Origin: a virus
Taxonomy: Duplodnaviria; Caudoviricetes
DNA: 64,000 nt
Virus record (IMG/VR): IMGVR_UViG_3300037312_000412
Location: 4,466-68,465 of that record
Direction: 5' to 3' (one strand)
Each line of letters opens with the position of its first letter. Positions within the stretch are counted from its first letter, which is position 1. Both the position numbers and the translations under genes were made by a program. The notes below the pieces were generated by a model, which saw nothing but the letters and a program-made list of their open reading frames with translations, made no database searches and was not told the DNA's origin. Below are positions 1 through 16,724 of the stretch, piece after piece.

Positions 1-34
1 TGACGCATTCCTCGCAACCGCCAAGGGGGTCTAA

Positions 35-949
35 ATGGCCGTTTCTGCCCGCAGTTCGGTTTACAGCCGGCACCAGCCCGGAGGGGTTTTTCTTCTCACG
101 GACGAGGCCCGGTATTCCGGTGAGGTGTTCTTCGTCGATTCGACGAATGCCAGCGCCTCGAATGTCACCGGAGGCGGGAAGAATCCCGACGCTCCGCTTG
201 CATCCATCGCGTACGCCCTGACTCTGTGTACCGCGGGGCAGGGCGACGTGATTATCGTTCACCCGAATCATGCCGAGCCCGTGCTCACTGCCGCCGGCAC
301 GCTGACCGTCAGCGTGAACGACGTCACGATTCTGGGGCAAGCGGTCGGTCAGCGCCGACCCAAGATCACATTCTCGACAGCGACCACGGCGAGTTTCCTG
401 ATCAGCGGTTCGGGCGTGCGGATCAGCAATCTGTACTTCGATTGCACGGGCTTCGACGCCCTAGCGAACCCGGTCAACGTGACTGGTCCGGACTGCGAAA
501 TCACCGATTGCTCGTTCCTTCTGGCGAATTCCACGAATCAGGCGGTCTGCGGTGTCAACGCCAGCGCCGCCGCAAATCGTCTCAAGATCGAGCGGTGCAG
601 ATTCCTAGGTTCGAGCGATGCGGGCTGCACGGCCGCAGTGGTTCTCACTGGTGGCGACGGAGCGCAAGTCGTCGATTGCTTCATGCAAGGGGCGTACAGC
701 TCTGGTGTGGGCGGAATCCAGAACGTCACCACCGCCTGCACGAACACGCTCGTCAAGGGCAACACGATCAACAACCTCACCGCCTCGAATACGAAGGCGA
801 TGGTGTTTGTCTCGGGTTCCACGGGTGTGATTCGCGACAACCGCATGCAGATTCTGTCGGGCACCGCGCCCATCACGGGAGCGGCGATGTCGTGGGTCGG
901 AGGCAATTATTACGCGGCCGGCATCGCTACTGGCGGCACACTCATCTGA
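35..949 (+). CDS. Right-handed parallel beta-helix (pectin-lyase-like) protein, probable head-associated virion protein
   Basis: Periodic strands ISNLYF/ITDCSF/IERCRF/VVDCFM/VKGNTI/IRDNRM; lies just upstream of the head-tail connector genes. Confidence 0.7.
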   Translation: MAVSARSSVYSRHQPGGVFLLTDEARYSGEVFFVDSTNASASNVTGGGKNPDAPLASIAYALTLCTAGQGDVIIVHPNHAEPVLTAAGTLTVSVNDVTILGQAVGQRRPKITFSTATTASFLISGSGVRISNLYFDCTGFDALANPVNVTGPDCEITDCSFLLANSTNQAVCGVNASAAANRLKIERCRFLGSSDAGCTAAVVLTGGDGAQVVDCFMQGAYSSGVGGIQNVTTACTNTLVKGNTINNLTASNTKAMVFVSGSTGVIRDNRMQILSGTAPITGAAMSWVGGNYYAAGIATGGTLI

Positions 950-962
950 TTGGAGGTGAGCC

Positions 963-1385
963 GTGTCTGGCTCGGCGATGACATTCGACATCGACAAGGT
1001 GGGGCCGCTCTGCGTCCTCATCGTGTCATGGACTTCGGACTCTTCGACAGGAGCTGTCACCGGCACCTCTCCGAAGATCACCGGAACGCTGGTCAAAGGA
1101 CAGACGATTCCCAGCGGAACCGCTGTTCCGAGCGACAACTACGACATCAACATCACGGACGAATCGAGCATCGACGTGCTCACGGCATGCCAGAGCAATC
1201 TGACGAACCGCGACACGTCAAACCACGAGGAAGCCTATTTCCTCGTGACCAATGCAGACGGCACGCCCAGCGCTTCGAGTGCCCATCCGGTCGTTTGCGA
1301 CAAACTCACTGTCGCAATCACCAATGCCGGAAATGCGACCAAGGGAACCATCCGCATCTACTACATCCCCGGTGCTAAGTCGTGA
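963..1385 (+). CDS. Hypothetical virion protein (beta-rich, Ser/Thr-rich)
   Basis: GTG start after GGAGG; overlaps the next gene; located in the morphogenesis module. Confidence 0.65.
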   Translation: MSGSAMTFDIDKVGPLCVLIVSWTSDSSTGAVTGTSPKITGTLVKGQTIPSGTAVPSDNYDINITDESSIDVLTACQSNLTNRDTSNHEEAYFLVTNADGTPSASSAHPVVCDKLTVAITNAGNATKGTIRIYYIPGAKS

Positions 1386-1993
1386 CGGGAATCTTCACTT
1401 GGTTTCATCAGGTCTGGCCGGATTCGTCCGTCAAGTACGGCATCCGCCAGACCGTTGCTCCCGAATCTACCGTGGTGACGGTGGACGACGCCAAGCATCA
1501 CTGCCGCATCGATACGAGTTTTGACGACGACTACGTGAACGGGCTGATCCTGGCAGCAGAGTCAGCATTGCAGAAGGAATACGGCTGCCAGTTTTTAACT
1601 GCGACGTGGCAACTCGTTCTCGACTACTTCCCGCCCACAATTCGCGTCCCGATTAGCCCTCTGCAGTCGGTGACCAGCATCACTTACGACGACGTGCAAG
1701 GAAATCAGCAGACGCTCGATACCTCGTGGTATCTGGTGGACGACGTGCGACAACCGGCTCGCATCCAGCCCTCTTACGGGCATGCGTGGCCGCCGACATA
1801 CACGGTTCTGAACCCCATCACAATCACGTTCACCGCAGGCTATGGCGATGAAGCGGCATCCGTACCAGCCGGTTGTGTCCACGCCATCAAGCTCTACGTC
1901 AATGCGCTCTATCAGAACCGCGAACCGACCGAGATGGAATGGAGCACCATCGGCAACCTGATGATCGATGTGAACCGTGGTATCTACGCTTAG
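1382..1993 (+). CDS. Head-tail connector (gp6/gp15-like adaptor)
   Basis: Motifs VTVDDAKHHCRID..DDDYV..LILAA, PLQSVTSITY.D, ITFTAGYG, AIKLYVNALYQNRE. Confidence 0.88.
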   Translation: MTGIFTWFHQVWPDSSVKYGIRQTVAPESTVVTVDDAKHHCRIDTSFDDDYVNGLILAAESALQKEYGCQFLTATWQLVLDYFPPTIRVPISPLQSVTSITYDDVQGNQQTLDTSWYLVDDVRQPARIQPSYGHAWPPTYTVLNPITITFTAGYGDEAASVPAGCVHAIKLYVNALYQNREPTEMEWSTIGNLMIDVNRGIYA

Positions 1994-2342
1994 GGAACTC
2001 AAAGCCGGCGAACTGAGACACCGGATCCAGTTTCAATACAACTCCGCGGTGGCGGACGCAGACACAGGTACACAGGATCCCGCTGGACCGTGGAAATTGC
2101 TGTTCGAGTGCTGGGCGAAGATTGAGGACTTGAGTGGCAGTGAACAGTGGCTGGACGAAACAAACAGGGCGATTGCCTCACATCTGATTACCTGCCGGGG
2201 AGCGAGAGAACTCGGAACACTGACGGCAGCCATGCGGATTCAGTCGCTCGATAACCAGCAGCTCTACGGAATCGTGAACATCAACGACGTTGAGGAGCGT
2301 GGGGTGCGGATGGAAATCGCCTGCATGCGAGAAACAGGATGA
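1977..2342 (+). CDS. Head closure / head-tail joining protein
   Basis: AGELRHRI.FQ and WAKIE.LSG.E motifs; gene order. Confidence 0.85.
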   Translation: MVSTLRELKAGELRHRIQFQYNSAVADADTGTQDPAGPWKLLFECWAKIEDLSGSEQWLDETNRAIASHLITCRGARELGTLTAAMRIQSLDNQQLYGIVNINDVEERGVRMEIACMRETG

Positions 2343-2893
2343 GTGGTTTGACCGGAGTCCGGAAGCTCGACCGCAAGCTCCAGGCTCTCGACCGGAAAGT
2401 GCAAAAGAAGCTCATCAGGTCTGCGGTCAATAAGGCGCTGACGATCGCGAAGAAAGCGATTCAAGCGGAAATCCCCGGTAGATATCCCGACCTCAAAAAA
2501 GCGGTCGGCAAGCGGCTGAATAAAGCGAAGACAGGGAATCAGAAGGGGCAAACGGTTGGCAAGGTGGGCGCTGCGGTCGGCATGAACGCCAAACGTCGCG
2601 CGAAGATGGCCGAGAAGAAGGGACCACGCAAGCGACCCGGAGTTGGAATCGGACCGGAGAACGCGCACTGGTTTTTGGTTGGGACGGGACAGCGGACACG
2701 CGGCTATCGGCGGATTCGAGTCAAAAGCGGCTGGAGAAGGAAGCGGACAACGCATCCGATTCAGTCCACTGGACGCATGAAGCCAGTTGCCCCGAATGCG
2801 GTCAAAAGAGGATTCGAAAAGTCGGCGGCGCAGCAGATGGAAAAGATTCGCTCCTCGCTTGAGGACGGGATTGCCAAGGAAGCCAAGGCGTGA
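2339..2893 (+). CDS. HK97 gp10-like tail completion protein
   Basis: LTGVRKLDRKL..L, HWFLVGT, TGRM.P..AVKRGF; gene order. Confidence 0.8.
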   Translation: MSGLTGVRKLDRKLQALDRKVQKKLIRSAVNKALTIAKKAIQAEIPGRYPDLKKAVGKRLNKAKTGNQKGQTVGKVGAAVGMNAKRRAKMAEKKGPRKRPGVGIGPENAHWFLVGTGQRTRGYRRIRVKSGWRRKRTTHPIQSTGRMKPVAPNAVKRGFEKSAAQQMEKIRSSLEDGIAKEAKA

Positions 2894-3321
2894 TTGAGAG
2901 CGGAATCAGAACATTGCTCGGGGCGCAGTCCTCAATCACGAATCTGCTGACATCGCAGACCATCGGAACAGTGACGTTTAACGGGATTTTCGTTCAGCAG
3001 GCGAAGCAGGGATTCATTCCACCGTTCATCGCCATCAAGCGGATCGAGCGTGATCCGATGGCATGTCTCGACGGGACGGTCGGAATGATGTCCAGCGACA
3101 TCGTGGTGAGTTGCGTGGCGCTGACATCAGACAAGGCGGATGCAGTGGCAAAAGCGGTCACGGATTACTTCAAGGATTACACGGGCGCGGCGGGTTCCGA
3201 CACCATCGACGCGGTGATTTGGACCGATGCACCCACGGACGAAATCGCGGACCCAGCCGGCGGCGAAGTCGCGTGGAAGTCGGTGGACCTCGAATTCACG
3301 GTACAGCACCACACGACATGA
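2890..3321 (+). CDS. Tail terminator protein (DUF3168-like)
   Basis: Size, PPFIAI.RI motif, position just before the tail tube gene. Confidence 0.75.
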   Translation: MIESGIRTLLGAQSSITNLLTSQTIGTVTFNGIFVQQAKQGFIPPFIAIKRIERDPMACLDGTVGMMSSDIVVSCVALTSDKADAVAKAVTDYFKDYTGAAGSDTIDAVIWTDAPTDEIADPAGGEVAWKSVDLEFTVQHHTT

Positions 3322-3500
3322 AAATCGACTGGGACCAGGGGCTCTGGCGCGTGTGCGACCTCAACGGGAATGTCCTGCAGCGAGCGAAGCACATCGTCAT
3401 CACCAAGCCGGTGGAACTCATCATCGAACGCGGCAAGCACGGTTGGGCAGTGACCTCTGGGGAATTAACGCAACACGGCGACACGCTGTTTATCACATAG
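3318..3500 (+). CDS. Small hypothetical protein
   Basis: ATGA-coupled start MKIDWDQG; fills the gap before the tail tube gene. Confidence 0.55.
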   Translation: MKIDWDQGLWRVCDLNGNVLQRAKHIVITKPVELIIERGKHGWAVTSGELTQHGDTLFIT

Positions 3501-3509
3501 GAGCAGAAC

Positions 3510-3929
3510 ATGGCGAAAGTTCCCTGCAAGGGCACCTCCCTGAAAATGACGATCAGCATGTCGCTTACGGCGGTCTCGCAGATCATTTCGATGGACCTCC
3601 CGAAGCCGGAATCGGAGACCTACGACTCCACGACTCTCGACCAGTCGAATGCGTGGAAGACCTACGACCCGACCGGCTATTCCGAGCCCGGCGAACTCTC
3701 GGGCGAGTTGTTCTACGACCCGGCTGCTGCTTCCCATGTCGCGCTCTCGGCACTCGTGGCGAATCCCGCATCGAACGCCTGCGAGATCGGCTACATGGAC
3801 TCCGGCACGACCACGCAGGACTTCAACGCGACAGGTTTCTCGCTCGGTGCCACGGTCGCGATGAACGATGGGCTCAAGGGCGAATTCAAGCTCAAGGTCT
3901 CCGGCAACCCCGGCTATCCCACCTCGTAA
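3510..3929 (+). CDS. Major tail (tube) protein
   Basis: GGAG RBS; ETYDSTTLD..WKTY.PTG.SEPGELSGELFYDP, typical siphovirus tail-tube pattern. Confidence 0.85.
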   Translation: MAKVPCKGTSLKMTISMSLTAVSQIISMDLPKPESETYDSTTLDQSNAWKTYDPTGYSEPGELSGELFYDPAAASHVALSALVANPASNACEIGYMDSGTTTQDFNATGFSLGATVAMNDGLKGEFKLKVSGNPGYPTS

Positions 3930-3941
3930 CGAAGGCGAGCA

Positions 3942-4352
3942 ATGAAGGCGAAGATTATCCGCGACGACATCCAGGTCTCTGGTCCGATTCCGGACAGCCT
4001 GAAAGACCAGGTTGCGACGAAGAACGTCAAGCGCAACGGCCGCATGGTGGACCTCCCGTTCTGGAAGGTTGGCGCTGTGTTGGAGCACCGCGAAGCGTGG
4101 CTGCTGGTGCTCTCTGGTTGCGCCGAAGCCGCCGACGACGAATGCAAGGCGAAGGTCAATCGCACTCCCGAACAGCAGAAAGCGGCGGAACTGGCGTACA
4201 GCCGGATTGCCGCTGGCATCGTCCCGAAGGACTTCGAGGCGTTCAACGCCGGCTACATGGTCGGCTATACGCCGAAGGGTGACTGGATTCCCGGTCCGAA
4301 CTACGCGGAATACGTGAAGCAGAAGGAGGCGTCCGAGAATGGCGCTGCGTGA
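3942..4352 (+). CDS. Hypothetical protein between tail tube and chaperone genes
   Basis: 136-aa ORF, tightly packed in the operon. Confidence 0.7.
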   Translation: MKAKIIRDDIQVSGPIPDSLKDQVATKNVKRNGRMVDLPFWKVGAVLEHREAWLLVLSGCAEAADDECKAKVNRTPEQQKAAELAYSRIAAGIVPKDFEAFNAGYMVGYTPKGDWIPGPNYAEYVKQKEASENGAA

Positions 4353-4656
4353 TTTGAAGTCGAAACCCCGCACGGTGCCGATCGGCGATACCACGGTCTT
4401 CGTGCGGTCGCTGACGCTCGGCGAAATCGAGCAGGTGGGAACGCTCGAAAAGACCGACGGCGTCGGCTCGTTGAAGCTCATGCTGTCGCTCGGGCTGGTG
4501 AACGAGGACGGCTCTCCATGCACTGCCGACGACATCGCGGCGGTCCCGATGGAATGCGTGGACCAACTCACCGACGCGATTCGCAAGGCGTCCACTCCGG
4601 GGAGCGTGGACACCATCGTAAAAAACTCCGAAACGACCAGCGCACCATCTTCCTGA
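4339..4656 (+). CDS. Tail assembly chaperone (gpG-like)
   Basis: VFVRSLTLGE motif; lies two ORFs before the tape measure gene; carries a slippery site. Confidence 0.8.
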   Translation: MALRDLKSKPRTVPIGDTTVFVRSLTLGEIEQVGTLEKTDGVGSLKLMLSLGLVNEDGSPCTADDIAAVPMECVDQLTDAIRKASTPGSVDTIVKNSETTSAPSS

Positions 4657-4952
4657 TGCGGCTTGCCGACGACGCTGGTCGGCTCCACGAATGGCGAACA
4701 CTGGCGGCAGAACTCACCCCGCAGCAACTCGCGGAACTCCAGGCGTATCGAAGGCTGTACCCGTGGCAGGATGACCGCGACGACCTGCGACACGCTCTGA
4801 TGACCTCGGTTGTGGCGGGAGCGTGGGGCGGGGAAGTCGATGTCGGCGAACTAGCGATGTACATGGAAAAAATGCGGGAGCAGTCACTCGAAGAGAACGT
4901 GCTCTCGCCCGAGGCTGCCGCTGCAATGATGCGCGGCTTGTTGTCGAGGTAA
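4339..4952 (+). CDS. Tail assembly chaperone gpGT-like product of a programmed -1 frameshift
   Basis: A-AAA-AAC at 4620-4626 is in frame with the chaperone; the -1 frame stays open to 4952 (IFLMRLA..TLAAELTPQQLAELQAYRRLYPW). Confidence 0.8.
4620..4626 (+). other. -1 ribosomal frameshift slippery heptamer AAAAAAC
   Basis: X-XXY-YYZ pattern in the correct phase (GTA AAA AAC). Confidence 0.85.
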
Positions 4953-4955
4953 CGG

Positions 4956-6608
4956 ATGGCTGCCTCAGTCGGCGACCTGGTCGCCAATCTGAACGCGAAC
5001 ACGACCGGATTTACCAAGGGGCTCACGAAGGCCCGCGGTGAACTCTCCGGGTTTTCGTCGTTCGCAGCCAGCGCTCTGTCTGGAATCGCGATTGGCGGCG
5101 GAGTTGGGGCAGTCACCGCGCTGATTTCCGGACTAAAAAGTCTCGGGACATCCGCCTTCGGAACGGCGAAGGAGATGGTGGGACTCGCCGCAACCGCTGA
5201 ATCGAATCAGGTTGCGTTCTCGACGATGCTGGGATCCGCCGACAAGGCGAAGACCGTTCTGGCGCAGATCACCGACCTGGCTGCAAAGACCCCGCTCGAA
5301 ACGTCGGAACTGGTGAGCGCCGGACGCTCCCTCATCGCGTTCAAGCACTCCGCCGAAGAGGTTGTGCCGACGCTCCGCATGCTGGGCGACATCTCTTCGG
5401 GCGTGCAGCAGCCCATCGGTGAGATTGCCGAGATTTACGGCAAGGCTCGCGTGCAGGGTCGACTCTTCGCGGAGGACATCAACCAGTTCACCGGGCGCGG
5501 CATCCCGATTATTCAGGAACTCGCCAAGCAGTTCGGCGTTGGCGACGAAAAGGTCCGCAAGCTGGTTGAGGACGGCAAAGTCGGTTTCCCGCACCTGCAG
5601 AAAGCCTTCATGGCGCTGACCGCCGATGGCGGGAAGTTCCACGGGATGATGGAGGCGCAGTCGAAGACCCTCGCAGGGCTCTGGTCCACGGCGAAGGATA
5701 ACGTCGCCATCGCCATGAAGGGCATCGGCGAGACCATCGTCGAGTCGTTCGGGCTGAAAGACTTGCTCGCGGACTCCAACAGCTTCGCCGAGACATTCCA
5801 GAGCGAGTGGCTGCCGGCGATTCAGGGGACCGTCCAAGCGGCGGGAGAGGTGTTCCGCGGTGTCGTGGACGGGATGAAGGCGGCGTGGAATGGCTGGTTG
5901 GGAGAGACGTTTGAATTGCTGAAGTTCGGTGTTCAGAACTGGGACATCCTGTTCGACATCGCACTCGAACACTTCATTCTGTTTGTCCACAACATTCCCG
6001 AATACTTCTCGACAGCGATGACCAACGTCGTCGAAATCCTGTCGTGGATGGGAGAGAACTGGTTCGACATTCTCAAGACGATGTTGAGCGTTGAGGAAAC
6101 GGTACTCAAGAATCTCGCATCGAATGCCGTCGGCTATTTCAAGGAGATTTTCGACTACTACTACAGCCTTGGGGATGACCCGGTTGAGTTTCAGTTCAAA
6201 GGACTGACAGAGGGGTTCAAGAACTCCATCAAGGAACTGCCGAAGCTCACCGAGGCAAATTTGGCGACTACGACGCCGCGACTGGAATCTCTGTATTCGC
6301 AACTTGGATCGCGTGAAGCGGAGGCGAATAAAAAGGCAGTCGCGCAGGCCGCGGGGGTGGCAGCTCCAGGAGAATTGAAAGTCACCGACACCTTCAAAAC
6401 CGAAGGGAAAAAGCACAAGGATACTGTTGCCGCTGCGCTGCAGGGATCCAAAGAGGATCTATCCGCTGTTGCTGCTGCCGTCAACGGGACTCGCGGCAAG
6501 AATCCCCTTGAGAAGATCGGCAATCAGCAGCTTGGCGAACTGAAAGCCATCCATACCGAGATTGCAAAGGTCGGAAAAACGCCAGCGGTTGTGCGGAGGG
6601 GGCTCTAA
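4956..6608 (+). CDS. Tape measure protein (550 aa)
   Basis: N-terminal VGDLVANLNANTTGF; tape-measure domain TPLETSELV..GDISSG..GKARVQGRL.AEDINQF.GRGIPI. Confidence 0.95.
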   Translation: MAASVGDLVANLNANTTGFTKGLTKARGELSGFSSFAASALSGIAIGGGVGAVTALISGLKSLGTSAFGTAKEMVGLAATAESNQVAFSTMLGSADKAKTVLAQITDLAAKTPLETSELVSAGRSLIAFKHSAEEVVPTLRMLGDISSGVQQPIGEIAEIYGKARVQGRLFAEDINQFTGRGIPIIQELAKQFGVGDEKVRKLVEDGKVGFPHLQKAFMALTADGGKFHGMMEAQSKTLAGLWSTAKDNVAIAMKGIGETIVESFGLKDLLADSNSFAETFQSEWLPAIQGTVQAAGEVFRGVVDGMKAAWNGWLGETFELLKFGVQNWDILFDIALEHFILFVHNIPEYFSTAMTNVVEILSWMGENWFDILKTMLSVEETVLKNLASNAVGYFKEIFDYYYSLGDDPVEFQFKGLTEGFKNSIKELPKLTEANLATTTPRLESLYSQLGSREAEANKKAVAQAAGVAAPGELKVTDTFKTEGKKHKDTVAAALQGSKEDLSAVAAAVNGTRGKNPLEKIGNQQLGELKAIHTEIAKVGKTPAVVRRGL

Positions 6609-7513
6609 TGGCAGTCCTCTCCATCAATCGCATTTCGGGAGAATCTTCGGATTACTCGAAGATCATCGACAGCAGCGCAAGCCTGCAGTGGCTGGCGAAG
6701 GTGTCGAGCCGGCAGGACAAAGGGAAAGACATCCTGCTGTATGGCTGGAACAACGAAATTCTGCCGTTCCCATTCGAGGATTTCTTTCCCGATTCGCCAA
6801 TCCTCTCCTGTCGCCACATTAAGGCGGAACAGGACAAATCCGCACCGCTCAAGTGGATTGTCACCGCCGACTATTCCAGCGAACCGCTGATCCAGGCGGA
6901 CAAGGACGAGGTGAAGGAAGAGAACCCGTTAATGCGGCCGGCGCGCATTAAGTGGTCCACGAACAAATACCTCAAAGGCATCAACAAGGACATCAACGGC
7001 AAAGCCATCGTCAATTCTGCCGGGGATTTCTTCGACCCAACGGTCGAGATCGACTGCTCCCACTGGACGGCAACAATCCAGAAGAACCTGCCGTGGGTGC
7101 CAAGCTGGCTCATCGACTACGACAACACTATCAACTCGAAGTCGTTCAACATCCAGGGGCTGACTATCCAGCCCTACAAGGCTCGTATCGACGAAATCGA
7201 GATCAGCGAGCCGCAGGAGCAGAACGGATATGAGTTCGTCGTCTTCACGTACAAGCTCGAATTCCGTGGAGAGGGATTCAAGTTGGTCGTGCAGGACCAG
7301 GGGATGAGACAGAAGGTCGCGGCGGGCATTGTGGACGGCAAAGCCACATACAACTGGGTGAAGTGCAAGAACGATGACGGATCCGACGTGACCGCCCCGG
7401 TTCCTCTGGACGGAAGTGGGGGGCAACTCGAAAACCCCACCGTGGACACCATCAAATACCTGTCGTTCGACGGCTACAACGCGCAGGACTTCAACGTCCT
7501 GCCATTGGAATAG
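6608..7513 (+). CDS. Probable distal tail/hub protein
   Basis: Directly follows the tape measure gene (TAATG overlap); beta-rich. Confidence 0.6.
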   Translation: MAVLSINRISGESSDYSKIIDSSASLQWLAKVSSRQDKGKDILLYGWNNEILPFPFEDFFPDSPILSCRHIKAEQDKSAPLKWIVTADYSSEPLIQADKDEVKEENPLMRPARIKWSTNKYLKGINKDINGKAIVNSAGDFFDPTVEIDCSHWTATIQKNLPWVPSWLIDYDNTINSKSFNIQGLTIQPYKARIDEIEISEPQEQNGYEFVVFTYKLEFRGEGFKLVVQDQGMRQKVAAGIVDGKATYNWVKCKNDDGSDVTAPVPLDGSGGQLENPTVDTIKYLSFDGYNAQDFNVLPLE

Positions 7514-7522
7514 GAGTTTTCA

Positions 7523-7987
7523 ATGAGATTCACGGGAACGGGAACATTCGACGCCGGGTTTATCTTCGACACGCACGTCAACAGCAACGCCGGCATCGAC
7601 GTGTCGAAGATGGAGCATGCACTTCCCAAGGGCACCAATTTCAACACCGCGATCGGCGGCACGCCCGCTACCCGCGAAGAACTCGTCCACTGCTTCACTC
7701 AGGACGGGCGCATCGTTGGGTTTCACGCATTGCTGAACGCCGTTGGCAGCGGTACCAGCATTGTGTTCGACCTGAAAAAGAACGGGACGAGCATTCTGGG
7801 TGCCGGCACAGTCACCATCACGAACTCCGACACCTCGGGGCAGACCTACGATGGCACGCTGACCGCGAGTCCGACCGCATGCGTCGCCGGCGACAGGATC
7901 TCTATTCTGATGACCGTGGGCAGTTCCACCGGAGCGCAGGGCGCGTTCGCGTGGGCGGAGATCATCGAGGACACCGCGACCTCGTGA
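7523..7987 (+). CDS. Hypothetical tail protein
   Basis: GGAG RBS; Gly/Thr-rich; position in the tail module. Confidence 0.6.
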   Translation: MRFTGTGTFDAGFIFDTHVNSNAGIDVSKMEHALPKGTNFNTAIGGTPATREELVHCFTQDGRIVGFHALLNAVGSGTSIVFDLKKNGTSILGAGTVTITNSDTSGQTYDGTLTASPTACVAGDRISILMTVGSSTGAQGAFAWAEIIEDTATS

Positions 7988-7988
7988 T

Positions 7989-9191
7989 ATGCCTGACGCA
8001 ATTGTTGCCTTTGATTCCGAAGATTCCTTTGACCGCATGGCCCGTGTGGTCCATCGGGAGGAGCGTTCGTATCGCCAGCGGCTGAACCGTCCCCAGAGAG
8101 GAAGGTATCAGGGCGAGCAGGAACAAATCCTCTGCGGTCGCATCGTCAGCAGTCTTTCGCAGTACGGGACATGCGCCGTATTGCTGACAATCGCAGATGG
8201 AAACGGCAGTGAAGTCGCGTTTGAGCCGGCGCAGACATACACGGTCTGGGATCGGCGCGGAGATGCGAGTCCCGCTATCACGTCAGTTAGCAGCGTGCAG
8301 ACAATCACGCTGAACTCAGGAACCACGAGCGGCAACGGCATTGTCAGCACCAGCGCCGGGGACACCGGCAGCGTGGTGTACAACGAAACCGCGAGCCAGT
8401 TCCAAACGGAGATGGATACGCTCTTCGGGGCGGGTAACACGGTCGTCTCTGGCGGTCCGCTGGGCACTGCGGCACTGACTATCACATTTCAGGGCACGCT
8501 CGCGGGAGTCGATGTCCCGACGTTCTCCCTTGGGACGAACAGCTTCTCTGGCGGAAGCAACCCCGGCTTGACATTCGCGACCACGACTGCCGGCATTGAA
8601 TGGCGGTGCGATTTTCGGTTCAGCAGCCAGTTCGGGAAGTTTGTTTTCGAGAACATCCCGTGCCAAGGGATTTCGTCGAGTAGTTCCTCATCGTCCAGCA
8701 GTTCTTCCAGTTCTTCGAGCAGTTCAAGCTCAAGTAGTTCTTCAAGCTCGTCCAGCAGCAGTTCCTCAAGCTCTTCTTCGTCGAGTTCGAGCAGCTCGTC
8801 CTCCAGCAGTTCTTCGAGTTCTTCGTCATCAAGCAGCATCAACCCGAATTGCGCGGCGTGCAGCAGTGCGGCGAGTTCCTACACCCTGGGTATCACCGCC
8901 CCGTCGAACGGAACGTGTTCGAATTGCGGCGGAATCGCAGGGTCATTCAGCCCGATTGCTCGCGTGTCTGATTGCAACTGGACATTAGTTACCAGCACTG
9001 CGATTTGCAGTGGCTTCCTGCATATCAATATCTCATATAGCGGCGGCACGACGACGCTCACGATGACAGACGGGACGAGCACGATTGCCACCTATACTGC
9101 CGCGGCGTGCCCATCAAGCGGATTGTCGCTGACGCGGGCATCCAATAGCGGCGCATGCACCAGTTGGCCCACGACAGTCACGATTTCATGA
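7989..9191 (+). CDS. Tail tip/fibre protein with an Ig-like module, a 55-Ser tract and a Cys-rich C-terminal domain
   Basis: VQTITL..G..SG...YN.TA..Q..D.L.G.GN.VVSGG..TITFQG module; poly-Ser; 8 Cys after the tract. Confidence 0.75.
   Translation: MPDAIVAFDSEDSFDRMARVVHREERSYRQRLNRPQRGRYQGEQEQILCGRIVSSLSQYGTCAVLLTIADGNGSEVAFEPAQTYTVWDRRGDASPAITSVSSVQTITLNSGTTSGNGIVSTSAGDTGSVVYNETASQFQTEMDTLFGAGNTVVSGGPLGTAALTITFQGTLAGVDVPTFSLGTNSFSGGSNPGLTFATTTAGIEWRCDFRFSSQFGKFVFENIPCQGISSSSSSSSSSSSSSSSSSSSSSSSSSSSSSSSSSSSSSSSSSSSSSSSSSSSSSSINPNCAACSSAASSYTLGITAPSNGTCSNCGGIAGSFSPIARVSDCNWTLVTSTAICSGFLHINISYSGGTTTLTMTDGTSTIATYTAAACPSSGLSLTRASNSGACTSWPTTVTIS
8673..8837 (+). repeat. Poly-serine tract (55 codons)
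   Basis: Counted codon by codon; all six Ser codons are used with no nucleotide periodicity. Confidence 0.97.
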
Positions 9192-9655
9192 CTCCTGCCC
9201 AAGCCGCCGCCATCGCAGACCAAATCGAAGGCTGGATGTATCCGGACGAACTGCTCTGGATCGCACAGACCGCGGCCACTTGTCAGCGATGGCTGGAGAT
9301 CGGCGTGCATCGCGGTCGCAGCCTGACGGCCGCCGCGCTTGTGTGTCCGGAAGTCTACGGCGTGGATCCCGAGATGCCCGCGCACATCGAAGCTGACGCG
9401 ACGTTCTTGCGACTTCCAAGCCTCGCGGCCGTCACGCGATTCCCAGACGGCTACTTCGACGCGGTATTCATCGACGGGGATCACAGCTACGAGGGCGTGA
9501 AGGCCGACATTGCCGCGTGGCGACCGAAAACGAAAGGGCTGCTCTGCGGACATGACTATGGAAAGAGTGATTTGCCTGGCGTGACGCAGGCGGTGGATGA
9601 GGCGTTTGGCGTTCCCGAGCGTGGGTCCGGGAGCATTTGGTTTGTGAGGGTTTGA
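9188..9655 (+). CDS. Class I SAM-dependent methyltransferase (Methyltransf_24-like)
   Basis: LEIGVHRGRS and DAVFIDGDHSYEGVKADI..W.P..G.LCGHDY; ATGA overlap with the poly-Ser gene. Confidence 0.9.
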   Translation: MTPAQAAAIADQIEGWMYPDELLWIAQTAATCQRWLEIGVHRGRSLTAAALVCPEVYGVDPEMPAHIEADATFLRLPSLAAVTRFPDGYFDAVFIDGDHSYEGVKADIAAWRPKTKGLLCGHDYGKSDLPGVTQAVDEAFGVPERGSGSIWFVRV

Positions 9656-12561
9656 TGCACATTTTCATCGCCGGCTACGCCGGTCACTGCGGCGGAGCGG
9701 AAACCGAAACGCTGCATCTCTGTGATGCGTTTGTGAAAGCTGGCATCACTCCCCATCTGGTCCCGCTCGGCGAGCCGGATAAGGAGTGGCGAGAACAGAC
9801 CGACGCCATCGGCTGCATCACGCACAGATACTCGCCCGACATCTTCGCGGGGCAAGTCGTGCTTAATCTCTGCAACGGCGACCATCTGCGGAAGCTCCCA
9901 GAGATTTACGCCAACGGTCCACCGAAGGCGTACATTTTCGGGGACTGCATGGCGCGTCAGGTCTACGGGCAGGACGCACATCGCGCGGGACATATTACGC
10001 ACTTCCTGTTTCAGTCGCAGTACCAGCGGAATAATCACCTGCCAGAGTTGGAGAAAATCGCCCCGGTGACGGAGTTGACCGGCTACCGCCCGTATTTCTC
10101 GTGGCAACGGGGCACTGAGGATGGACTGTGGGCTCCCGGCTGTCCCTGCAACAAGCTAGATGGCACGTTCAACGTCGGGCGACTGTCGCGCGATGACTAC
10201 TACAAGTTCCCGGATGCGTTCTGGAAAAACTGGCAGGAGATCCGCGCAGAGAAGCCGGTCCATTTCTGGGTTCTGGGTTATGGGCAGAACGCCCGGAATC
10301 GCTGCGGCGAGCCCCCGAGCGGCGACACGTTCCACGTCTACCCCGCGTACGCGATGCCCGCGGCGGATTTCGTCTCCCGGCTCGATGTGCTGATCCATAC
10401 CACAGGCGGCAGCGGCGAGAACTGGCCGCGGGTGCTGTTCGAGGCGTGGGCAAGCGGCGTGGTGCCGATTTTCGAGCGCGACACAGGCGCATCGGAGATT
10501 ATCACCGACGGTGTTGACGGGTTTCTCGTCCGCTCTGGGGACGAAGCCGCAGAGCGTGCCTCGCAAATTGCACAGGATGACGCCCTACGCACACGGCTGG
10601 TCAAAGCCGGATATGAGACGCTACTCCGCGAGCACTGCAGCGTGGAACGCAGCGTGGGGCCGTTCCTGCCGTTGCTGGAGGGTTGCCCGGAGGTAACGGC
10701 GGACCCGATGCCGAAGCGTGGAACGCTCGATGTGTCCCGTATTCGCGCCATCAACGACTCTCAGAACGCGATTGTGCAGAAATCGACGCGGTTCATGGTG
10801 GCGCAGTGGCACATCGCGGACGGCAAGGTGCATCTCGACCGGCACACGCACGACTTCCCTAAAGAGGACATGGCGAGGGCGCTCGCGATGCTGTCGGCTG
10901 ACTTGGGGCAGCCCGCTCCCGCCCCTGAGAAACGAGACGGGCAAATCAAGAATCTCTGCATCTGCCACTGGGGCCACTCCCGCAGCGTCTGTCTCGCGCG
11001 TCTGCTCCACGGGAAGGGACAGGCGGCGGTTGCCATCGGGTTCGCCTCAAGCGGCGGCGCAATCGCCCCGCTGAGCGCATGGGCGGATCGGATCTTCGTC
11101 CTACAGGCGGATTATGCGAAGTATGTGCCTGCCGAGCATGCGGCAAAAGTCGTCGTGATGGATGTCGGACCCGATGTGTGGGCGAATCCGTACAACGCTG
11201 ATCTGCGGGCGAAGCTGGAGGGGATGTACGCGGCGTGGGAGCAGTCTCAGTTACCCCGCAAGCTCACCATCGCCTGCCAGACGTTCCCCGGAAGTCCCAT
11301 GCCGGAAGTCTGCCGCGAAACGTGGATCCCACGCGCCCGCGAACTCGGTATTGAGGTGCTGTTCTATTCTGGCGGAGGAGAAGGACAGGATGGCGATACC
11401 TGCTCCTTCCCTGTCCGCACCGACTATGGAGGCCACACTGAACGCACGAACGCACTGCTGCAGTGGTTCTCCCAGACGCATCCGAACACCTGGCTGTTTG
11501 ACGGCGACGACGACACGCTTGTGGCTCCCGAGCGTATGCTGGCGTACCTGGAGACCGCAGAGGAGTACTGCGGCTGGGACCTCGGCGCGTACGGCTCCGG
11601 CGGCGCGGGTGTGCTGCTCAGCCCGCGCGCCGTTCGGATTCTCGCGGACAATCCGCTCCCTGATCCGAGCGGATGGGATGACATCCAGATTGGCGAAGTG
11701 CTCCGAGCGCACGGAATCAACCTGACGCACGACGAACGCTTCCGCCCGTGGTGCAACAGCGACCCAAACGACGGCAACGAACCGGGACCGCAGAACGCCT
11801 ACATTACCGGACACTGCAAAACGCCCGCGCGAGATCCGTACCCGCACCGTATCGCTCTAATGCGGAAGGCGTGGGCGGATCTGACGAACCGTAAACTGAC
11901 GATTGGTGTGATGACCTTCCCTGGCAGTCCTCTCGCAAACGCCTGCCGAGAGACCTGGGTGCCTCGCGCGCGCGAGTTGGGCGTCGAAGTGCTGTTCTAC
12001 AGTGGCTCAAAGAAGCCCTGCTGCGGTCAACCGTGGGAGACGAGACAGGAAGGCGACTTGCTCCAGTTCGCGGCCGAGCCCGACTACGCGCACAGTTGCG
12101 ACCGAATGGAGGCGTTCGCTCAATGGATGTCGCAGAATCGTCCCGGCCATTGGCTGCTGGGCGTGGATGATGACACGCTCGTTTTGCCTGATCGACTCTT
12201 GGCGATGCTGCCGAGCGTGGGCGAATACGTCGGCTGGGGCTGCGATGCCAATCACCGGATCGGACACGGCGGCGCGGGCTACATTCTCTCGCCGCAGGCT
12301 GTTGCGCTCATCGCGGAAAAGGGGCTCCCGCCGACAGGGCATCACGACATCGAAATCGGCAATGTGATGTACGACAGTGGCGTGGTGTTCACGCACGATA
12401 CGCGGTTTCGCCCGCATCGTAATTCGGTGCCTGGGGACGATAACGAGCCGACGCGAAAGAACGGATACGTGACGTGTCACTGCAAGTCGGGGGCAATTGG
12501 AGATGATCCGCACGCCGACAGAATCAGGCTGATGCGGCGGATCTGGGCGGAGGTGGCGTGA
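9655..12561 (+). CDS. Multidomain glycosyltransferase: GT-B (GT4-like) + CX5R phosphatase-like + two Fringe/GT31-like domains
   Basis: GGAETE; ENWPRVLFEAWASGV.PI..ITDGVDGFLV; CHWGHSRS at 10963-10986; tandem RKLTI..TFPGSP..CRETW.PRARELG repeats at 11257 and 11890, each with DDDT and GGAG..LS. Confidence 0.85.
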   Translation: MHIFIAGYAGHCGGAETETLHLCDAFVKAGITPHLVPLGEPDKEWREQTDAIGCITHRYSPDIFAGQVVLNLCNGDHLRKLPEIYANGPPKAYIFGDCMARQVYGQDAHRAGHITHFLFQSQYQRNNHLPELEKIAPVTELTGYRPYFSWQRGTEDGLWAPGCPCNKLDGTFNVGRLSRDDYYKFPDAFWKNWQEIRAEKPVHFWVLGYGQNARNRCGEPPSGDTFHVYPAYAMPAADFVSRLDVLIHTTGGSGENWPRVLFEAWASGVVPIFERDTGASEIITDGVDGFLVRSGDEAAERASQIAQDDALRTRLVKAGYETLLREHCSVERSVGPFLPLLEGCPEVTADPMPKRGTLDVSRIRAINDSQNAIVQKSTRFMVAQWHIADGKVHLDRHTHDFPKEDMARALAMLSADLGQPAPAPEKRDGQIKNLCICHWGHSRSVCLARLLHGKGQAAVAIGFASSGGAIAPLSAWADRIFVLQADYAKYVPAEHAAKVVVMDVGPDVWANPYNADLRAKLEGMYAAWEQSQLPRKLTIACQTFPGSPMPEVCRETWIPRARELGIEVLFYSGGGEGQDGDTCSFPVRTDYGGHTERTNALLQWFSQTHPNTWLFDGDDDTLVAPERMLAYLETAEEYCGWDLGAYGSGGAGVLLSPRAVRILADNPLPDPSGWDDIQIGEVLRAHGINLTHDERFRPWCNSDPNDGNEPGPQNAYITGHCKTPARDPYPHRIALMRKAWADLTNRKLTIGVMTFPGSPLANACRETWVPRARELGVEVLFYSGSKKPCCGQPWETRQEGDLLQFAAEPDYAHSCDRMEAFAQWMSQNRPGHWLLGVDDDTLVLPDRLLAMLPSVGEYVGWGCDANHRIGHGGAGYILSPQAVALIAEKGLPPTGHHDIEIGNVMYDSGVVFTHDTRFRPHRNSVPGDDNEPTRKNGYVTCHCKSGAIGDDPHADRIRLMRRIWAEVA

Positions 12562-13829
12562 TGGGACGCGGGCGCGGGAGATGCTGCTGCGGTTGCGCTA
12601 TCGACTATTACGACTTGATCGTATTCGGAGGTGCCTACAAGTCGAATTCGGACGGCACGTTCAGCGCTGCTGCTGGGTTTATGCCGCCGACTGGAATCGA
12701 CTTTGACGACGATGGACCGAATGGCGGCGACTATCGCAACGACGACAACTTCTTTCTGATCCGCAGGCCCACGAAATACTTGCTACCCTCGTACTACGGC
12801 ACATTTCAGCTCTATCAGGCCTGTTCGAGCGCTCCGACGTTCATCAACTCGCCTCAGCAACCGACAGGCGTTGGCGGCCTCGGTTTCGTGCCTGGGGTCG
12901 GCGCGTTCTCGCAGGGACCGATCGGGTACATCTGCAATTACACCTACGAGACAAACACTTCGAACGTCTACTCGGTGTCGTCTTCGGGCTGCACGATGAT
13001 CGCTCAGATGCCGTCGAGCACGGGCTACCCGATGTGCTGGAGCGGTGACGATTTCATGGCGGTCTGCCCACCGTCAGGTTCGCTCACTGGTGGCAGCGCG
13101 ACATCAACCGACAACATCGCGTACACATTCGACGGATCGACCTTCACAGCCCAGACAACTGGCAGTATTCCGTTGCCCGCAGACAGCGGCGGCGGCTACG
13201 CATCGATCTACAGAATCTTCGGTCCGTACAGTAGCAGTATAAGCCAGATCGGCGGATCTGGAGGGGGGATCTTTGCCTGGAACGGGAGCACGCTCGGGTT
13301 TTGGCTCCTGGCCTCGGGGACAGGCGGCGGTGCAGACGGCTTCGTGACGATGCAGAGAACCGGAAACGACCTATCGGCAGGGACAGCTTTCGCGCTGACT
13401 GTGGCGAACGACAGTATCGCATCGGATTCTCTCGCGGACTCCGCCGGAGCATTTGCGATCAGTCCAGACGGGAGCATTATTGCATTTTCTGCGAGTTCAT
13501 CGGATGCAGGCACCTTCAATCCGCTTTATCCGCCTCGCGATGGCGGCGGCAGGAGTCGCCGCAATCGAATCCACATCTACAAAAACGGCACCCTCACCGC
13601 AAACGTTCTGCCGGCGAACGCGATCAGCGATTCTCTGATCTACCAGATGAGCATCAGCGACGACGGAAAGGCGCTTGTCGCCTGTTCTGAAACAGCCAGC
13701 GGGAGCATTCCGAACCCCGGAAATACCACCACCTACAAAATCAACAGCGACGGCAGCCTGACGCAGTTGGATCAGAAGGGGCCGGGGCGAGTCGCGTTCT
13801 TTTCTCACCAGTACCGCTGCCCGGTGTGA
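12558..13829 (+). CDS. Putative receptor-binding tail protein (beta-propeller-like) with an N-terminal CCCGC motif
   Basis: GTGA overlap; AISPDGSIIAF and MSISDDGKALV blade motifs; Gly/Ser-rich. Confidence 0.6.
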   Translation: MMGRGRGRCCCGCAIDYYDLIVFGGAYKSNSDGTFSAAAGFMPPTGIDFDDDGPNGGDYRNDDNFFLIRRPTKYLLPSYYGTFQLYQACSSAPTFINSPQQPTGVGGLGFVPGVGAFSQGPIGYICNYTYETNTSNVYSVSSSGCTMIAQMPSSTGYPMCWSGDDFMAVCPPSGSLTGGSATSTDNIAYTFDGSTFTAQTTGSIPLPADSGGGYASIYRIFGPYSSSISQIGGSGGGIFAWNGSTLGFWLLASGTGGGADGFVTMQRTGNDLSAGTAFALTVANDSIASDSLADSAGAFAISPDGSIIAFSASSSDAGTFNPLYPPRDGGGRSRRNRIHIYKNGTLTANVLPANAISDSLIYQMSISDDGKALVACSETASGSIPNPGNTTTYKINSDGSLTQLDQKGPGRVAFFSHQYRCPV

Positions 13830-14080
13830 CGATGGATCTGCCGCCATTCAGAACCCGGATCGTCAACTTTTTTAGGACATTCGTCGCGCACGTCGGGAAC
13901 GACATGCGGATCGTGCCTCAAGAGAAGTTGGAGGAGCGGCTTTCCATCTGCGAGACAAACGCTTGCGGCCACTTCACGGGAACGCACTGCGCTCAATGCG
14001 GATGCCCAGCGAACAGCGAAAGCGTGTTCTTCAACAAGGTCGCGTGGGAGTCCAGCAAGTGCCCTGATGGCCGCTGGTGA
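13826..14080 (+). CDS. Small Cys-rich protein ending the tail operon
   Basis: RLSIC...C......CAQCGC........K......CPDGRW pattern. Confidence 0.7.
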   Translation: MTMDLPPFRTRIVNFFRTFVAHVGNDMRIVPQEKLEERLSICETNACGHFTGTHCAQCGCPANSESVFFNKVAWESSKCPDGRW

Positions 14081-14081
14081 C

Positions 14082-15719
14082 TCACTCGACGAAGCTGTGA
14101 AGGATCGTCAGATCTCGCATCGACTGCGTCGGCACGTCGTAGTACCGGATATGAATGGCTATCGCCTTCATGTCGTGCCAGTCGTCAGAGCCGGGCCAGC
14201 CCGCTTCTCCTGCGTCGTCGATGCCGTTGATCTTGTCGTCATCGATCCCAGCAACCCCTGGCTGACCATCAATTCCGGTGTCGAAGTTTCGGAACGGGGC
14301 CACATCCACCGAGGCGTCAGCGGTCCATGTGTCGTAGACGTTTTTGTTGTAGCCCGCGGCGGTGTTCGGGTTGTTGTTGCCATAGTTCACGCTCTGGGAC
14401 GTGAGATACTTCGAGGCGTTCGTGCCGCCAATGTCCACGAACATCCCGGTCATCCCTGTGATCGGGTTGGTGGCCCAGTCGTCCCAAACCTTGATGTCGA
14501 ACTCGTGGACGTTCGTCGCCAGCAGATCGTGAGAGACGCGAGTCCCGTTGAATTGATTGCCGTTGATCGTGGCGAAGCCGTTGGCGTTGACGGCAGTCGT
14601 CGAGGCGGTCAATGGGCAGGTGTCGTCTCCGGTGTAATAAACGCCATCCGGTCCGTATCCCGGAGAGCCCGGCCAACTGAATCCAGGGTCGCTCGTCTCC
14701 ATCTGCGTGAAGCGGCCGATGTAGCTCTGATCGGCGGTATACTCCATTGAGTGCGGAATCACACTGGATGTTCCGGGCGCGAAGCCCCAGCGATTCTGCG
14801 GCTGCCCCATGCTCATCGGTCGGCCGTTGAAGTTATCGAGAGCGCCGCTCTGAACACCCACAAACCGGAGTCCGCCGCTCCATGTCGCCGAATAGTCGAA
14901 GTCACCCCAAAAACTCGCATTAGCGAAGCCGAAGCCATTCGACAGCGGGTTATCCGTGTTCGATGGGGACGACGGGTTCCAGATCATGCCGGCGGTGTAA
15001 ACCGTCGCGTTGGGGATCAACGCCGTTCCATCTGGCCGAAGCGGCTGGTCGTCGGATTTCGTGCCATCAATCGGCTGCCGGATCAGCATCTGTCGGCGGT
15101 AGAGATTGCCGTTCCGAAGGAAGTAGGCGATCTCGGCGTAGCCCGATGTTCCGGTCTGGTCCGAGGTGAGAGCGCCGGTTGAATACCGCCCGGCCTGATC
15201 GTCGAACACCGGCTGATCCGGATTGTGCTGCAACAGGTCGCGGGCGCTGGTGTCGTTTGGCGGGGAAAATGGACCGTTGTCGGAGCCGAACTGGAGCGCG
15301 CGTCCGTAGAATGTCGGCGTTTCGAAATTGTTCGAGGCGTTACTCGCGTCAACCGTAAACTGGATCATGTCATCGATCTGGTCGTTCGGGTTGTTCTCGG
15401 CGATATAGACGTAGCCGCGGGCGTACGATGCCATCAACGGGGACTTGCTTGGGGTCTTGTCGCTCGACGCGAGTGCCCGAATTCCGAACTCGCCGTGAAT
15501 CTGCCGGTAGCTGCGGCTGCTCAGATCTCCCCGGATCAGGATGTTGAGCATGCGGGCTTTCTGGTCGTTCTCCGCGACGCCCTTCATCTTCGACATGCTC
15601 TTGGTGGCAATCGAAAACACTTCTCCGAACATCGCCAACATCAGGCAGACGAGGGCAACGGCGACGAGCATTTCGACCAGGGTGAAGCCCGAACGGCGAT
15701 TTGGGGCGTGTTTCTTCAC
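14082..15719 (-). CDS. Prepilin-type N-terminal cleavage/methylation protein (type IV minor pilin/GspJ-like), 545 aa
   Basis: GTG start after AGGAG; MKKHAPNRRSG|FTLVEMLVAVALV class III signal; EIAYFLRNGNLYRRQMLIR; DGQPGVAGIDDD..GIDD acidic loop; C-terminal RDLTILHSF. Confidence 0.92.
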   Translation of the reverse strand: MKKHAPNRRSGFTLVEMLVAVALVCLMLAMFGEVFSIATKSMSKMKGVAENDQKARMLNILIRGDLSSRSYRQIHGEFGIRALASSDKTPSKSPLMASYARGYVYIAENNPNDQIDDMIQFTVDASNASNNFETPTFYGRALQFGSDNGPFSPPNDTSARDLLQHNPDQPVFDDQAGRYSTGALTSDQTGTSGYAEIAYFLRNGNLYRRQMLIRQPIDGTKSDDQPLRPDGTALIPNATVYTAGMIWNPSSPSNTDNPLSNGFGFANASFWGDFDYSATWSGGLRFVGVQSGALDNFNGRPMSMGQPQNRWGFAPGTSSVIPHSMEYTADQSYIGRFTQMETSDPGFSWPGSPGYGPDGVYYTGDDTCPLTASTTAVNANGFATINGNQFNGTRVSHDLLATNVHEFDIKVWDDWATNPITGMTGMFVDIGGTNASKYLTSQSVNYGNNNPNTAAGYNKNVYDTWTADASVDVAPFRNFDTGIDGQPGVAGIDDDKINGIDDAGEAGWPGSDDWHDMKAIAIHIRYYDVPTQSMRDLTILHSFVE

Positions 15720-16027
15720 GGCGAATCTCCTACTTGGATCCCAGCCCGTCTGCTGTAAGTCCCAACCTGCGTCCCGCCCATCATCAACCGGATTTCCCCA
15801 TCGCCAGCGGCTGCCCGCAACTCTGGCTCGATTCGGTGGAAGTCGCTCGCCCAAACGCTCAGAGAGCCAGTATCGGTGAAGTTCTGAACGTGCCCGGTTG
15901 CTGCAGCTCGCTCCAGCGCCGACAGGTCGCGCGGACTGGTATCGGCTCGCGGCTTCATGGCAACCCAGATCGCAGCCACGATACAGGTCATCACCGCCAG
16001 AATCGAGACGACGGCGCGGCTACTCAC
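15716..16027 (-). CDS. Small membrane-anchored protein coupled to the pilin gene
   Basis: N-terminal hydrophobic segment; GTGA overlap with the pilin start. Confidence 0.7.
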   Translation of the reverse strand: MSSRAVVSILAVMTCIVAAIWVAMKPRADTSPRDLSALERAAATGHVQNFTDTGSLSVWASDFHRIEPELRAAAGDGEIRLMMGGTQVGTYSRRAGIQVGDSP

Positions 16028-16184
16028 GGCTCAGATCCTCAAGCATCTCCACGAGCGCCCCCTTGAGAGCGGACCGCTCTTCGAAGGGAAGCTCTTTGCT
16101 CCGGATGACCTTGAGATACCGGCGGACCACGCCCTTCAACGTCAACAGTTCCTGCTCGACTGATTCCATCAGCACTGCCGTCAT
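16020..16184 (-). CDS. Small helical hypothetical protein
   Basis: MTAVLMESVEQ...; 8-nt overlap with the next gene. Confidence 0.55.
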   Translation of the reverse strand: MTAVLMESVEQELLTLKGVVRRYLKVIRSKELPFEERSALKGALVEMLEDLSRE

Positions 16185-16380
16185 GATTTCGACCCCACGA
16201 AACACCGAAACCCGCGCATCCTGGGGCAAGCAGAAATGCCGGGCCGGTGCCGGACGAAACGTCCGTGTTTCAGTATTTCCTGCCCGCCTTGCCCGCGGGC
16301 ACTGTTCAGCGTACCGAGATTCAGCAACGAGTGCCAATATTGGCTGGATCAACCAGTTACGAAAACGTAACAAAACCCAG

Positions 16381-16408
16381 TTGACATGCGTTCAGTACCG
16401 CGTATAGT
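16381..16408 (+). promoter_or_regulatory. Sigma70-like promoter TTGACA-N16-TATAGT
   Basis: Near-consensus hexamers read directly from the sequence. Confidence 0.7.
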
Positions 16409-16723: not shown

Positions 16724-16724
16724 G

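Follow-up and report, generated by a model that had tools for sequence, protein, structure and literature searches.

Introduction

Near-pure serine stretches tens of residues long, termed polyserine linkers (PSL), join the modules of carbohydrate-active proteins in Saccharophagus degradans, Cellvibrio japonicus and Teredinibacter; they measure, for example, PSL(58) and PSL(25) and often set off a small binding module (Howard et al. 2004, cited in PMC2386152). Here, we analyze a comparable stretch in a phage. The window under study is a DNA of 64,000 nucleotides, bases 4466–68465 of the complete IMG/VR record IMGVR_UViG_3300037312_000412 (68,465 bp, with 127-bp terminal repeats). The gene of interest (7989..9191, + strand) encodes a 400-aa tail-region protein, P0001, in which a single run of exactly 55 serines (res. 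229–283) lies between a CTE-like virion surface module and a C-terminal Cys-rich β-barrel; genes for a methyltransferase and a glycosyltransferase follow in overlapping frames. The reading that we hold with about even confidence is that this run forms a disordered poly-Ser linker in a distal-tail accessory protein and is possibly an O-glycan acceptor.

P0001 resembles the bacterial PSL proteins in the purity of the tract, where 55 of 55 residues are serine, and in its placement between independently folding or conserved modules. The two differ in context. PSLs belong to secreted bacterial enzymes with CAZy modules, whereas P0001 is a phage tail-region protein with glycosyltransferase genes next to it and has no Pfam, NCBIfam or CAZy domain on any part.

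Phages that decorate their own particles are a further point of comparison. Che8, Corndog and Myrna are mycobacteriophages that attach glycans to capsid and tube proteins through enzymes of their own (Freeman et al. 2023, as covered in PMC12363180 and PMC11256854). Glycosyltransferases are phage-encoded in both cases, and in the window they comprise one GT4-like and two GT31-like domains. In the mycobacteriophages, however, glycans have been demonstrated, on the capsid and tail tube, whereas the candidate acceptor here is a 55-Ser distal-tail linker, proposed from the genes. Nor does the enzyme group of Che8 gp110 and Corndog gp38 include a relative of the 968-aa glycosyltransferase of the window, for which a tblastn search of 50,697 phage records (E ≤ 1e-5) returned no match.

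Serine-rich repeat adhesins (SRRPs) of Gram-positive bacteria are O-glycosylated in the cytoplasm (PMC6973325). Like P0001, they contain a long Ser-rich region; GT4-type GtfA/GtfB act on it, co-encoded transferases then extend the glycan, and the resulting stalk presents a binding domain (PMC6973325, PMC5207161). SRRPs are, however, built of Ser-X dipeptide repeats over hundreds of residues, have dedicated export (aSec), and carry their binding region on the N-terminal side, whereas the tract described here is a pure Ser run and the accompanying GT4 similarity is generic (~25 bits). No Sec-type gene was found among the phage neighbors examined.

The conserved neighbor on the N-terminal side of the tract has its described counterpart in Bxb1, where a CTE-like module occurs in gp23 (the tail tip cage or distal tail protein), in the gp19 tube and in the capsid (PDB 9d93, 9d94, 9d9w; PMC13252515, PMC13148394). 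Domains of this CTE-like kind have been described for the distal tail protein of Bxb1 (PMC13252515), and entry 9D93 is tied to this phage (PMC13148394). Unlike in P0001, neither a poly-Ser tract nor a C-terminal barrel follows the CTE-like module in Bxb1, and the same holds for the 80 viral loci surveyed below.

The serine tract is in frame and is not a microsatellite

Translation of the open reading frame (ORF) places the serine run at 8673..8837 (+). All six serine codons are in use (AGC 12 times, TCG 11, AGT 11, TCC 7, TCA 7 and TCT 7), and their order is scrambled: adjacent codons change from the TCN to the AGY class or back 27 times. Translation and codon counts thus agree with what the original prediction had read from the letters, and a second assembly carries the identical tract. 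Over its 165 nt, exact DNA repeats reach 14 nt at most, and Tandem Repeats Finder detects two period-9 mini-arrays alone, each of 2–3 copies and with scores of 36–37, so the view that this is no slippage microsatellite stands. The tract is held as serine at the protein level, as had also been proposed, being kept as Ser with six codons and in a non-microsatellite sequence. No second comparable tract exists in any frame of the 68.5-kb genome.

The additional claim that the tract avoids DNA repeats found no support in a comparison with random codon orders. When the 55 codons were shuffled 5000 times, the longest repeat came to 12.5 ± 2.0 nt versus the observed 14, and class switches numbered 26.7 ± 3.6 versus the observed 27; the count of adjacent identical codons likewise fell within the shuffled range. 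As the codon order is that of a random shuffle, active repeat avoidance is not demonstrated, and only the codon usage is non-random. Serine codons are used more evenly in the tract than in 17 other phage genes (entropy 2.54 vs 2.34 bits, chi-square p = 0.002), with an enrichment of the rare codons AGT, TCA and TCT.

Low-complexity DNA can be mis-assembled, and the tract could be read as an artefact of assembly or frame, or the true gene could be an antisense ORF (8489..8842, − strand). The other two sense-side frames are free, or nearly free, of stops through the tract, and one antisense frame is open. Against this, the Logan assembly of the sole public run with the sequence yields a 68,349-bp contig that is identical over 8300..9200 at a word depth of 16, which excludes an assembler artefact. 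That run, a metagenome from the rhizosphere, probably represents the source sample itself, so the second assembly is not an independent sampling, and contigs are blind to length variants. The sense frame is anchored on both sides: its 5′ part matches actinophage virion proteins, and its 3′ part matches a conserved domain family. The tract also lacks long repeats able to collapse or expand, and the antisense ORF is just 117 aa and sits within a same-strand gene block. We consider an artefact or an antisense gene extremely improbable; the tract is real and in frame. The antisense ORF, open through the tract, is Leu/Glu/Asp-rich and most likely a by-product of the Ser codons rather than a gene.

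In the full-length AlphaFold2 (AF2) model, residues 229–285 are modeled as coil with a predicted local distance difference test score (pLDDT) of ~30, next to a confidently folded C-terminal domain. The flexible tether envisaged by the original prediction gains support from this predicted disorder, and we think it very likely that the tract acts as a linker or tether.

A portable Cys-rich β-barrel at the C-terminus

The tract leads directly into a Cys-rich module of 117 aa with eight cysteines (res. 284–400; 8838..9188, + strand), delineated by eight relatives and by the AF2 model. A phmmer search of 1.84 billion representative proteins retrieved these relatives (P0003–P0010), all metagenomic and each a weak match but in agreement with one another, with E-values from 8e-7 to 3.5e-4. 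They define a family of ~110 aa with the pattern N-G-x-C-x-x-C, C-x-W, C-G, C-x-x-W-P-x-T-V-T; C27, C30, C57, C107 and P111 are invariant in their alignment (A1). Modeled alone from nine sequences, the module reaches a pLDDT of 86.5 and a predicted template modeling score (pTM) of 0.80, and its pLDDT within the full-length model is >90, giving a confidently predicted small β-barrel. The eight cysteines suggest either pairing into disulfides after release or metal binding through the two CxxC pairs.

The family appears undescribed. It matches no Pfam or PHROG family, and its best Foldseek hit in the PDB has an E-value of 0.47. The best BFVD match, an uncharacterized phage protein (E 0.029, TMq 0.60), is unconvincing, and a wide VIA-align comparison peaks at Z 5.9 with designed β-barrels, below the level that goes beyond a common arrangement. 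A search of PDB sequences with the barrel profile gave one spurious low-complexity match only. As for further members, a word-indexed search with residues 284–400 found none, a search with profile A2 returned its own rows only, and a hidden Markov model of the barrel found none over 160 viral loci. P0004 and P0007 have no viral relatives, and the ESM Atlas gave no usable match for either half of P0001.

The architecture of the relatives is informative. In seven of the eight, the barrel is the last part of the protein, P0007 carries two tandem copies, and at least four unrelated N-terminal parts bear the barrel. Ser-rich linkers directly precede it in P0005 (~140 aa, Ser-rich) and P0008 (~60 aa, Ser/Gly-rich), and short Gly/Thr/Ser linkers do so in P0004 and P0006. 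Its C-terminal site, the varied N-terminal parts and the recurrent linkers are the marks of a tethered, portable tip module. The barrel is an autonomous unit that probably binds a ligand or glycan.

Two relatives are built differently. P0007 has a Cys-rich N-terminal stretch (TCCCGGSICGGTCPCCGC) ahead of its two barrel copies, and P0009 begins with an N-terminal hydrophobic segment that ends in a lipobox-like 'SGC'. On account of these architectures, the barrel may occur on cellular or membrane-anchored proteins as well.

A CTE-like module on the N-terminal side of the tract

Residues 99–204 (8283..8600, + strand) form the second conserved part of P0001. By tblastn, this region matches hypothetical and minor-tail proteins of Microbacterium and Mycobacterium phages (E 3e-6), and it also matches an insertion in P0002 (E 1e-8), a protein that looks capsid-like by eye. 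Profile A5 aligns with Bxb1 gp23, the 'tail tip cage' (PDB 9d93_Ma), at an E-value of 4.2e-37, with four significant repeat matches and one non-significant stretch. It also matches the C-terminal domains of the Bxb1 tail tube (gp19) and capsid proteins, with E-values of 6.6e-5 for 9d93_Ja and 0.011 for 9d9w_Aa. The profile is dominated by actinophage rows, and membership therefore rests also on the tblastn matches, on P0002 and on the direct match of the window sequence alone to gp23 (BLASTP E 7e-5). Taken together, these similarities identify residues 99–204 as a sequence homolog of the Bxb1 CTE-like surface module. The original prediction had placed the tract between an Ig-like module and a Cys-rich C-terminal domain. 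Its role as a separator holds, with two independently conserved modules flanking the tract; the upstream module is a sequence homolog of the Bxb1 CTE-like module, for which an Ig-like fold is conjectural.

The CTE-like module is promiscuous. Across 80 IMG/VR loci (L097–L176), we counted 107 ORFs that contain one to six copies each, at varied positions within the proteins. A Mycobacterium abscessus prophage carries the module in the gene directly after the tape measure. The module is also widespread beyond actinophage isolates; some copies appear to lie in capsid-like proteins (by eye) and others in tail proteins of up to 2369 aa.

The remainder of the N-terminal half is less well defined. The first ~98 aa (7989..8282, +), presumably the virion-attachment part, have no match in Pfam, PHROGs or PDB sequences and no detectable relatives, and are modeled at a pLDDT of ~30. 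Over residues 1–228 as a whole, the full-length model has a pLDDT of ~25–52 (~30 for the CTE-like module), with a low-confidence helix at residues 135–146 inside the module and a short one at residues 183–185. A 24-aa segment with two cysteines (res. 206 and 225; 8601..8672, +) connects the module to the tract. With the whole protein or its N-terminal part as query, a protein homolog search recovers P0002 alone, and searches of viral and metagenome contigs recover none. Homology of the P0001 N-terminus with the N-termini of P0004 and P0006 was considered and rejected, as the BLASTP comparison was not significant. We infer attachment to the tail from the gene order, together with the presence of the same module right after the tape measure in the mycobacterial prophage.

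A methyltransferase and a glycosyltransferase are coupled to the poly-Ser gene

The gene that follows encodes a class I S-adenosylmethionine (SAM) methyltransferase of the Methyltransf_24 family (9188..9655, +; Pfam E 7.8e-12), whose ATG overlaps the TGA of the poly-Ser gene (ATGA). The methyltransferase stop in turn overlaps the start of a 968-aa glycosyltransferase (9655..12561, +; TGATG), and the stop of the latter overlaps the GTG of the next gene (GTGA). Because of the ATGA and TGATG overlaps, joint translation of the poly-Ser, methyltransferase and glycosyltransferase genes late in infection is most likely. No sigma-70-like promoter was seen on the + strand between 4500 and 16381, in a weak promoter and terminator scan that performed at chance level. 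By eye, the translated enzymes contain no signal or membrane segment.

The 968-aa protein is a fusion of an N-terminal GT4-like GT-B domain with two GT31/Fringe-like repeats, recognized through Pfam (Glyco_trans_1_4, Glycos_transf_1, Fringe and Galactosyl_T) and through PDB sequence matches. Its nearest solved proteins by sequence are BshA, B3GLCT and C1GalT1, all three of them weak matches. The GT31-like repeats span ~210 aa each, with one DDDT motif in each, and among solved proteins are most similar to B3GLCT and C1GalT1, enzymes that extend protein O-glycans. No relative of the 968-aa protein was found in genome contigs, in viral contigs or in the 50,697 phage records (tblastn, E ≤ 1e-5). 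The coupling of the tract to a methyltransferase and a three-domain glycosyltransferase makes its serines possible O-glycan acceptors.

The methyltransferase is the member of the cassette with abundant relatives, with >400 matches in viral contigs. We surveyed 80 of these viral loci (L016–L095) and counted GT2 genes on 50 of the records. A GT2 gene is present in 21 of the 50, and in 15 of the 50 it lies within 5 kb of the methyltransferase, which argues that this methyltransferase belongs to glycan cassettes and not to DNA methylation. The PHROGs label for the family is 'DNA methyltransferase'. The enzyme was also considered as a marker of poly-Ser systems and rejected, a Ser-rich ORF being present in 1 of 80 loci only.

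A second phage with Ser-rich virion-region proteins

One relative of the barrel protein leads to another phage. Over its N-terminal part, P0005 is a homolog of a 271-aa protein, its sole viral relative, encoded in a 92-kb IMG/VR phage (IMGVR_UViG_3300031111_000008, hereafter G001; loci L011–L015). The gene for this protein lies between the head–tail genes and the tape measure, and its product terminates in an 85-aa Ser-rich tail. Counting this one, G001 has three Ser-rich proteins in its late or virion region (8554–10584, 19608–20294 and 25926–26741). One of the other two carries ~390 aa of SSSSSSIST repeats after a ConA-like lectin domain, and the repeats in its DNA reach at least 199 nt. The Ser-rich tracts of G001 all use six Ser codons.

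Downstream of these genes by ~10 kb, a cassette at ~36960–42711 has Pfam matches to Methyltransf_24, a radical-SAM protein, a sulfotransferase and GT2. One GT2 match passes the curated cut-off (29 bits); the other two fall short of it. The window methyltransferase is 34% identical to the methyltransferase of this cassette.

G001 also bears on the statement in the original prediction that such linkers are unusual in phage tail proteins. This is true of cultured phages, whose low-complexity regions were found in a survey to be rich in Ala, Gly and Pro (PMC6821194), but not of uncultured ones, as the three Ser-rich virion-region proteins of G001 illustrate.

Tether and possible glycan acceptor

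In the arrangement that we favor, the N-terminal half would dock P0001 on the distal tail and display the Bxb1-type CTE-like module, and the 55-Ser spacer would hold the barrel away, leaving it free to explore the space near the tip over several nanometres. Calculated with general polymer values, the tract would have a contour length of ~19 nm when fully extended and would span ~6–8 nm as a random coil. A cytoplasmic (methylated) O-glycan may in addition be attached to the serines before assembly, in which case the sugar-loaded linker would become a stiffer, extended, protease-resistant and mucin-like stalk. Glycosylation of the tract is favored by the gene coupling, the late-operon position, the soluble-looking enzymes, the cassette of G001 and the published precedents; we place its probability slightly short of even.

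Several observations weigh against parts of this arrangement. Glycosylation is read from the genes. Similarity to GT4 and GT31 families is weak and generic, with a best NCBIfam score of ~25 bits versus cut-offs of 270–400, and enzymes of the GT4/GT31 type also take part in making lipopolysaccharide and capsules. Just 1 of the 80 viral loci with a related methyltransferase has a Ser-rich ORF within 10 kb; such cassettes, which are common, therefore usually have another target. In the window, the cassette is placed between the tail genes and the pilin/integrase region, and temperate phages often keep host-surface conversion genes at such sites. A poly-Ser run follows the CTE-like module in none of the 80 viral loci that carry it. 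For the barrel, binding is a guess, since nothing of known function matches it in structure or sequence. The N-terminal half is modeled at low confidence, and tail attachment is deduced from gene order and module homology only.

Some of these points lend themselves to a simpler account, in which the tract is a bare flexible linker and the enzymes act elsewhere, be it on a host envelope glycan in lysogenic conversion, on the nearby pilin or on another virion protein, their adjacency reflecting a cargo insertion site. It draws on the frequency of methyltransferase–glycosyltransferase cassettes that have a GT2 gene nearby and no Ser-rich ORF, on the adjoining pilin-like gene and the integrase 6 kb farther on, a typical place for conversion genes, and on four barrel-family members that have no linker or a short non-Ser one. 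Bacterial carbohydrases offer a precedent: their poly-Ser linkers, present in more than a quarter of those of S. degradans, are interpreted simply as linkers, that is, plain spacers (PMC2386152). The overlapping starts and stops count against this account, pointing as they do to joint translation late in infection, and so do the lack of a visible promoter in the weak scan, the soluble appearance of the enzymes and the presence of such a cassette in G001, a second poly-Ser phage. We regard the bare linker as a real possibility, albeit one that falls clearly below an even chance.

The tract may instead be modified in another way, for example, by phosphorylation and dephosphorylation through a CX5R-like segment of the glycosyltransferase fusion, or it may be cleaved to release the barrel. 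Between its GT4-like and GT31-like parts (~aa 440–530), in a region that no family search recognized, the fusion does contain 'CICHWGHSRS', and the G001 cassette includes a radical-SAM gene. However, family searches recognized neither a phosphatase nor a kinase here, no radical-SAM gene lies beside the tract in the window, and there is no sign of a protease site. Such alternatives strike us as very unlikely.

Returning to the glycosylated tether, a broader and more speculative version would make poly-Ser runs a general, undescribed O-glycosylation tag of phage particles. In P0001, the methyltransferase and the three-domain glycosyltransferase, translated together with it, would coat the 55-Ser stalk in a methylated glycan brush; the stalk would present a disulfide-rich tail-tip barrel and be a phage counterpart of the bacterial SRRPs, in a lineage distant from the mycobacteriophages. 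We put this forward tentatively and would sooner expect it to fail than to hold.

Polyserine linkers and virion glycosylation are already known in kind; what is new here is a barrel family that appears undescribed and is carried on a poly-Ser tether. If the tract is a tether only, it is a clear case of phages attaching portable binding modules to tail proteins through disposable linkers, and the small barrel family joins the candidate receptor-binding modules. To our knowledge, virion glycosylation has so far been shown only in a few mycobacteriophages. If the tract is glycosylated, the phenomenon extends to unrelated environmental phages with a simple, recognizable acceptor tag. Sequence would then suffice to predict which phages are sugar-coated, a property with consequences for how particles recognize their hosts, how stable they are and how visible they are to immunity. 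The three coupled genes are a small set, testable without knowledge of the host.

Genome context and neighboring genes

The genome is complete and that of an uncultured temperate phage, siphophage-like in its gene content. Within the window, the head–tail adaptor is encoded at 1382..1993, the serine integrase at 18647..20248 and the terminase at 60940..62631; no relative of the terminase was found in GTDB genomes. The tape measure protein (4956..6608, +) was identified by PHROG 9959 (E 9e-73), Pfam TMP_3 and tblastn matches to annotated tape measure proteins. Downstream of it, the genes run on the same strand as a single block in which each stop overlaps or abuts the following start: the first occupies 6608..7513, the second 7523..7987, and the poly-Ser gene, third in order, starts 1 nt past the stop of the second. 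The gene just upstream of the poly-Ser gene has no metagenome match.

On the other side of the cassette, the overlapping block continues with a gene for a 423-aa product (12558..13829, +; GTGA overlap with the glycosyltransferase stop) that has no family, PDB or phage match. An 84-aa ORF (13826..14080) overlaps its end by 4 nt. Just past the tail/glycosyltransferase block, a 590-aa ORF on the opposite strand (14082..15854, −) has a prokaryotic N-terminal methylation (pilin) motif.

ARAGORN found no tRNA or tmRNA over the window (1..64000), leaving a tRNA-like cloverleaf at 22429..22503 unrecognized; a phage-borne tRNA-Ser, considered as a candidate, was ruled out on this basis. A short (GCT/CTG)7-type trinucleotide run at 40755..40778 encodes 7-residue homopolymers in several frames; no other truly microsatellite-like stretch was seen in the genome.

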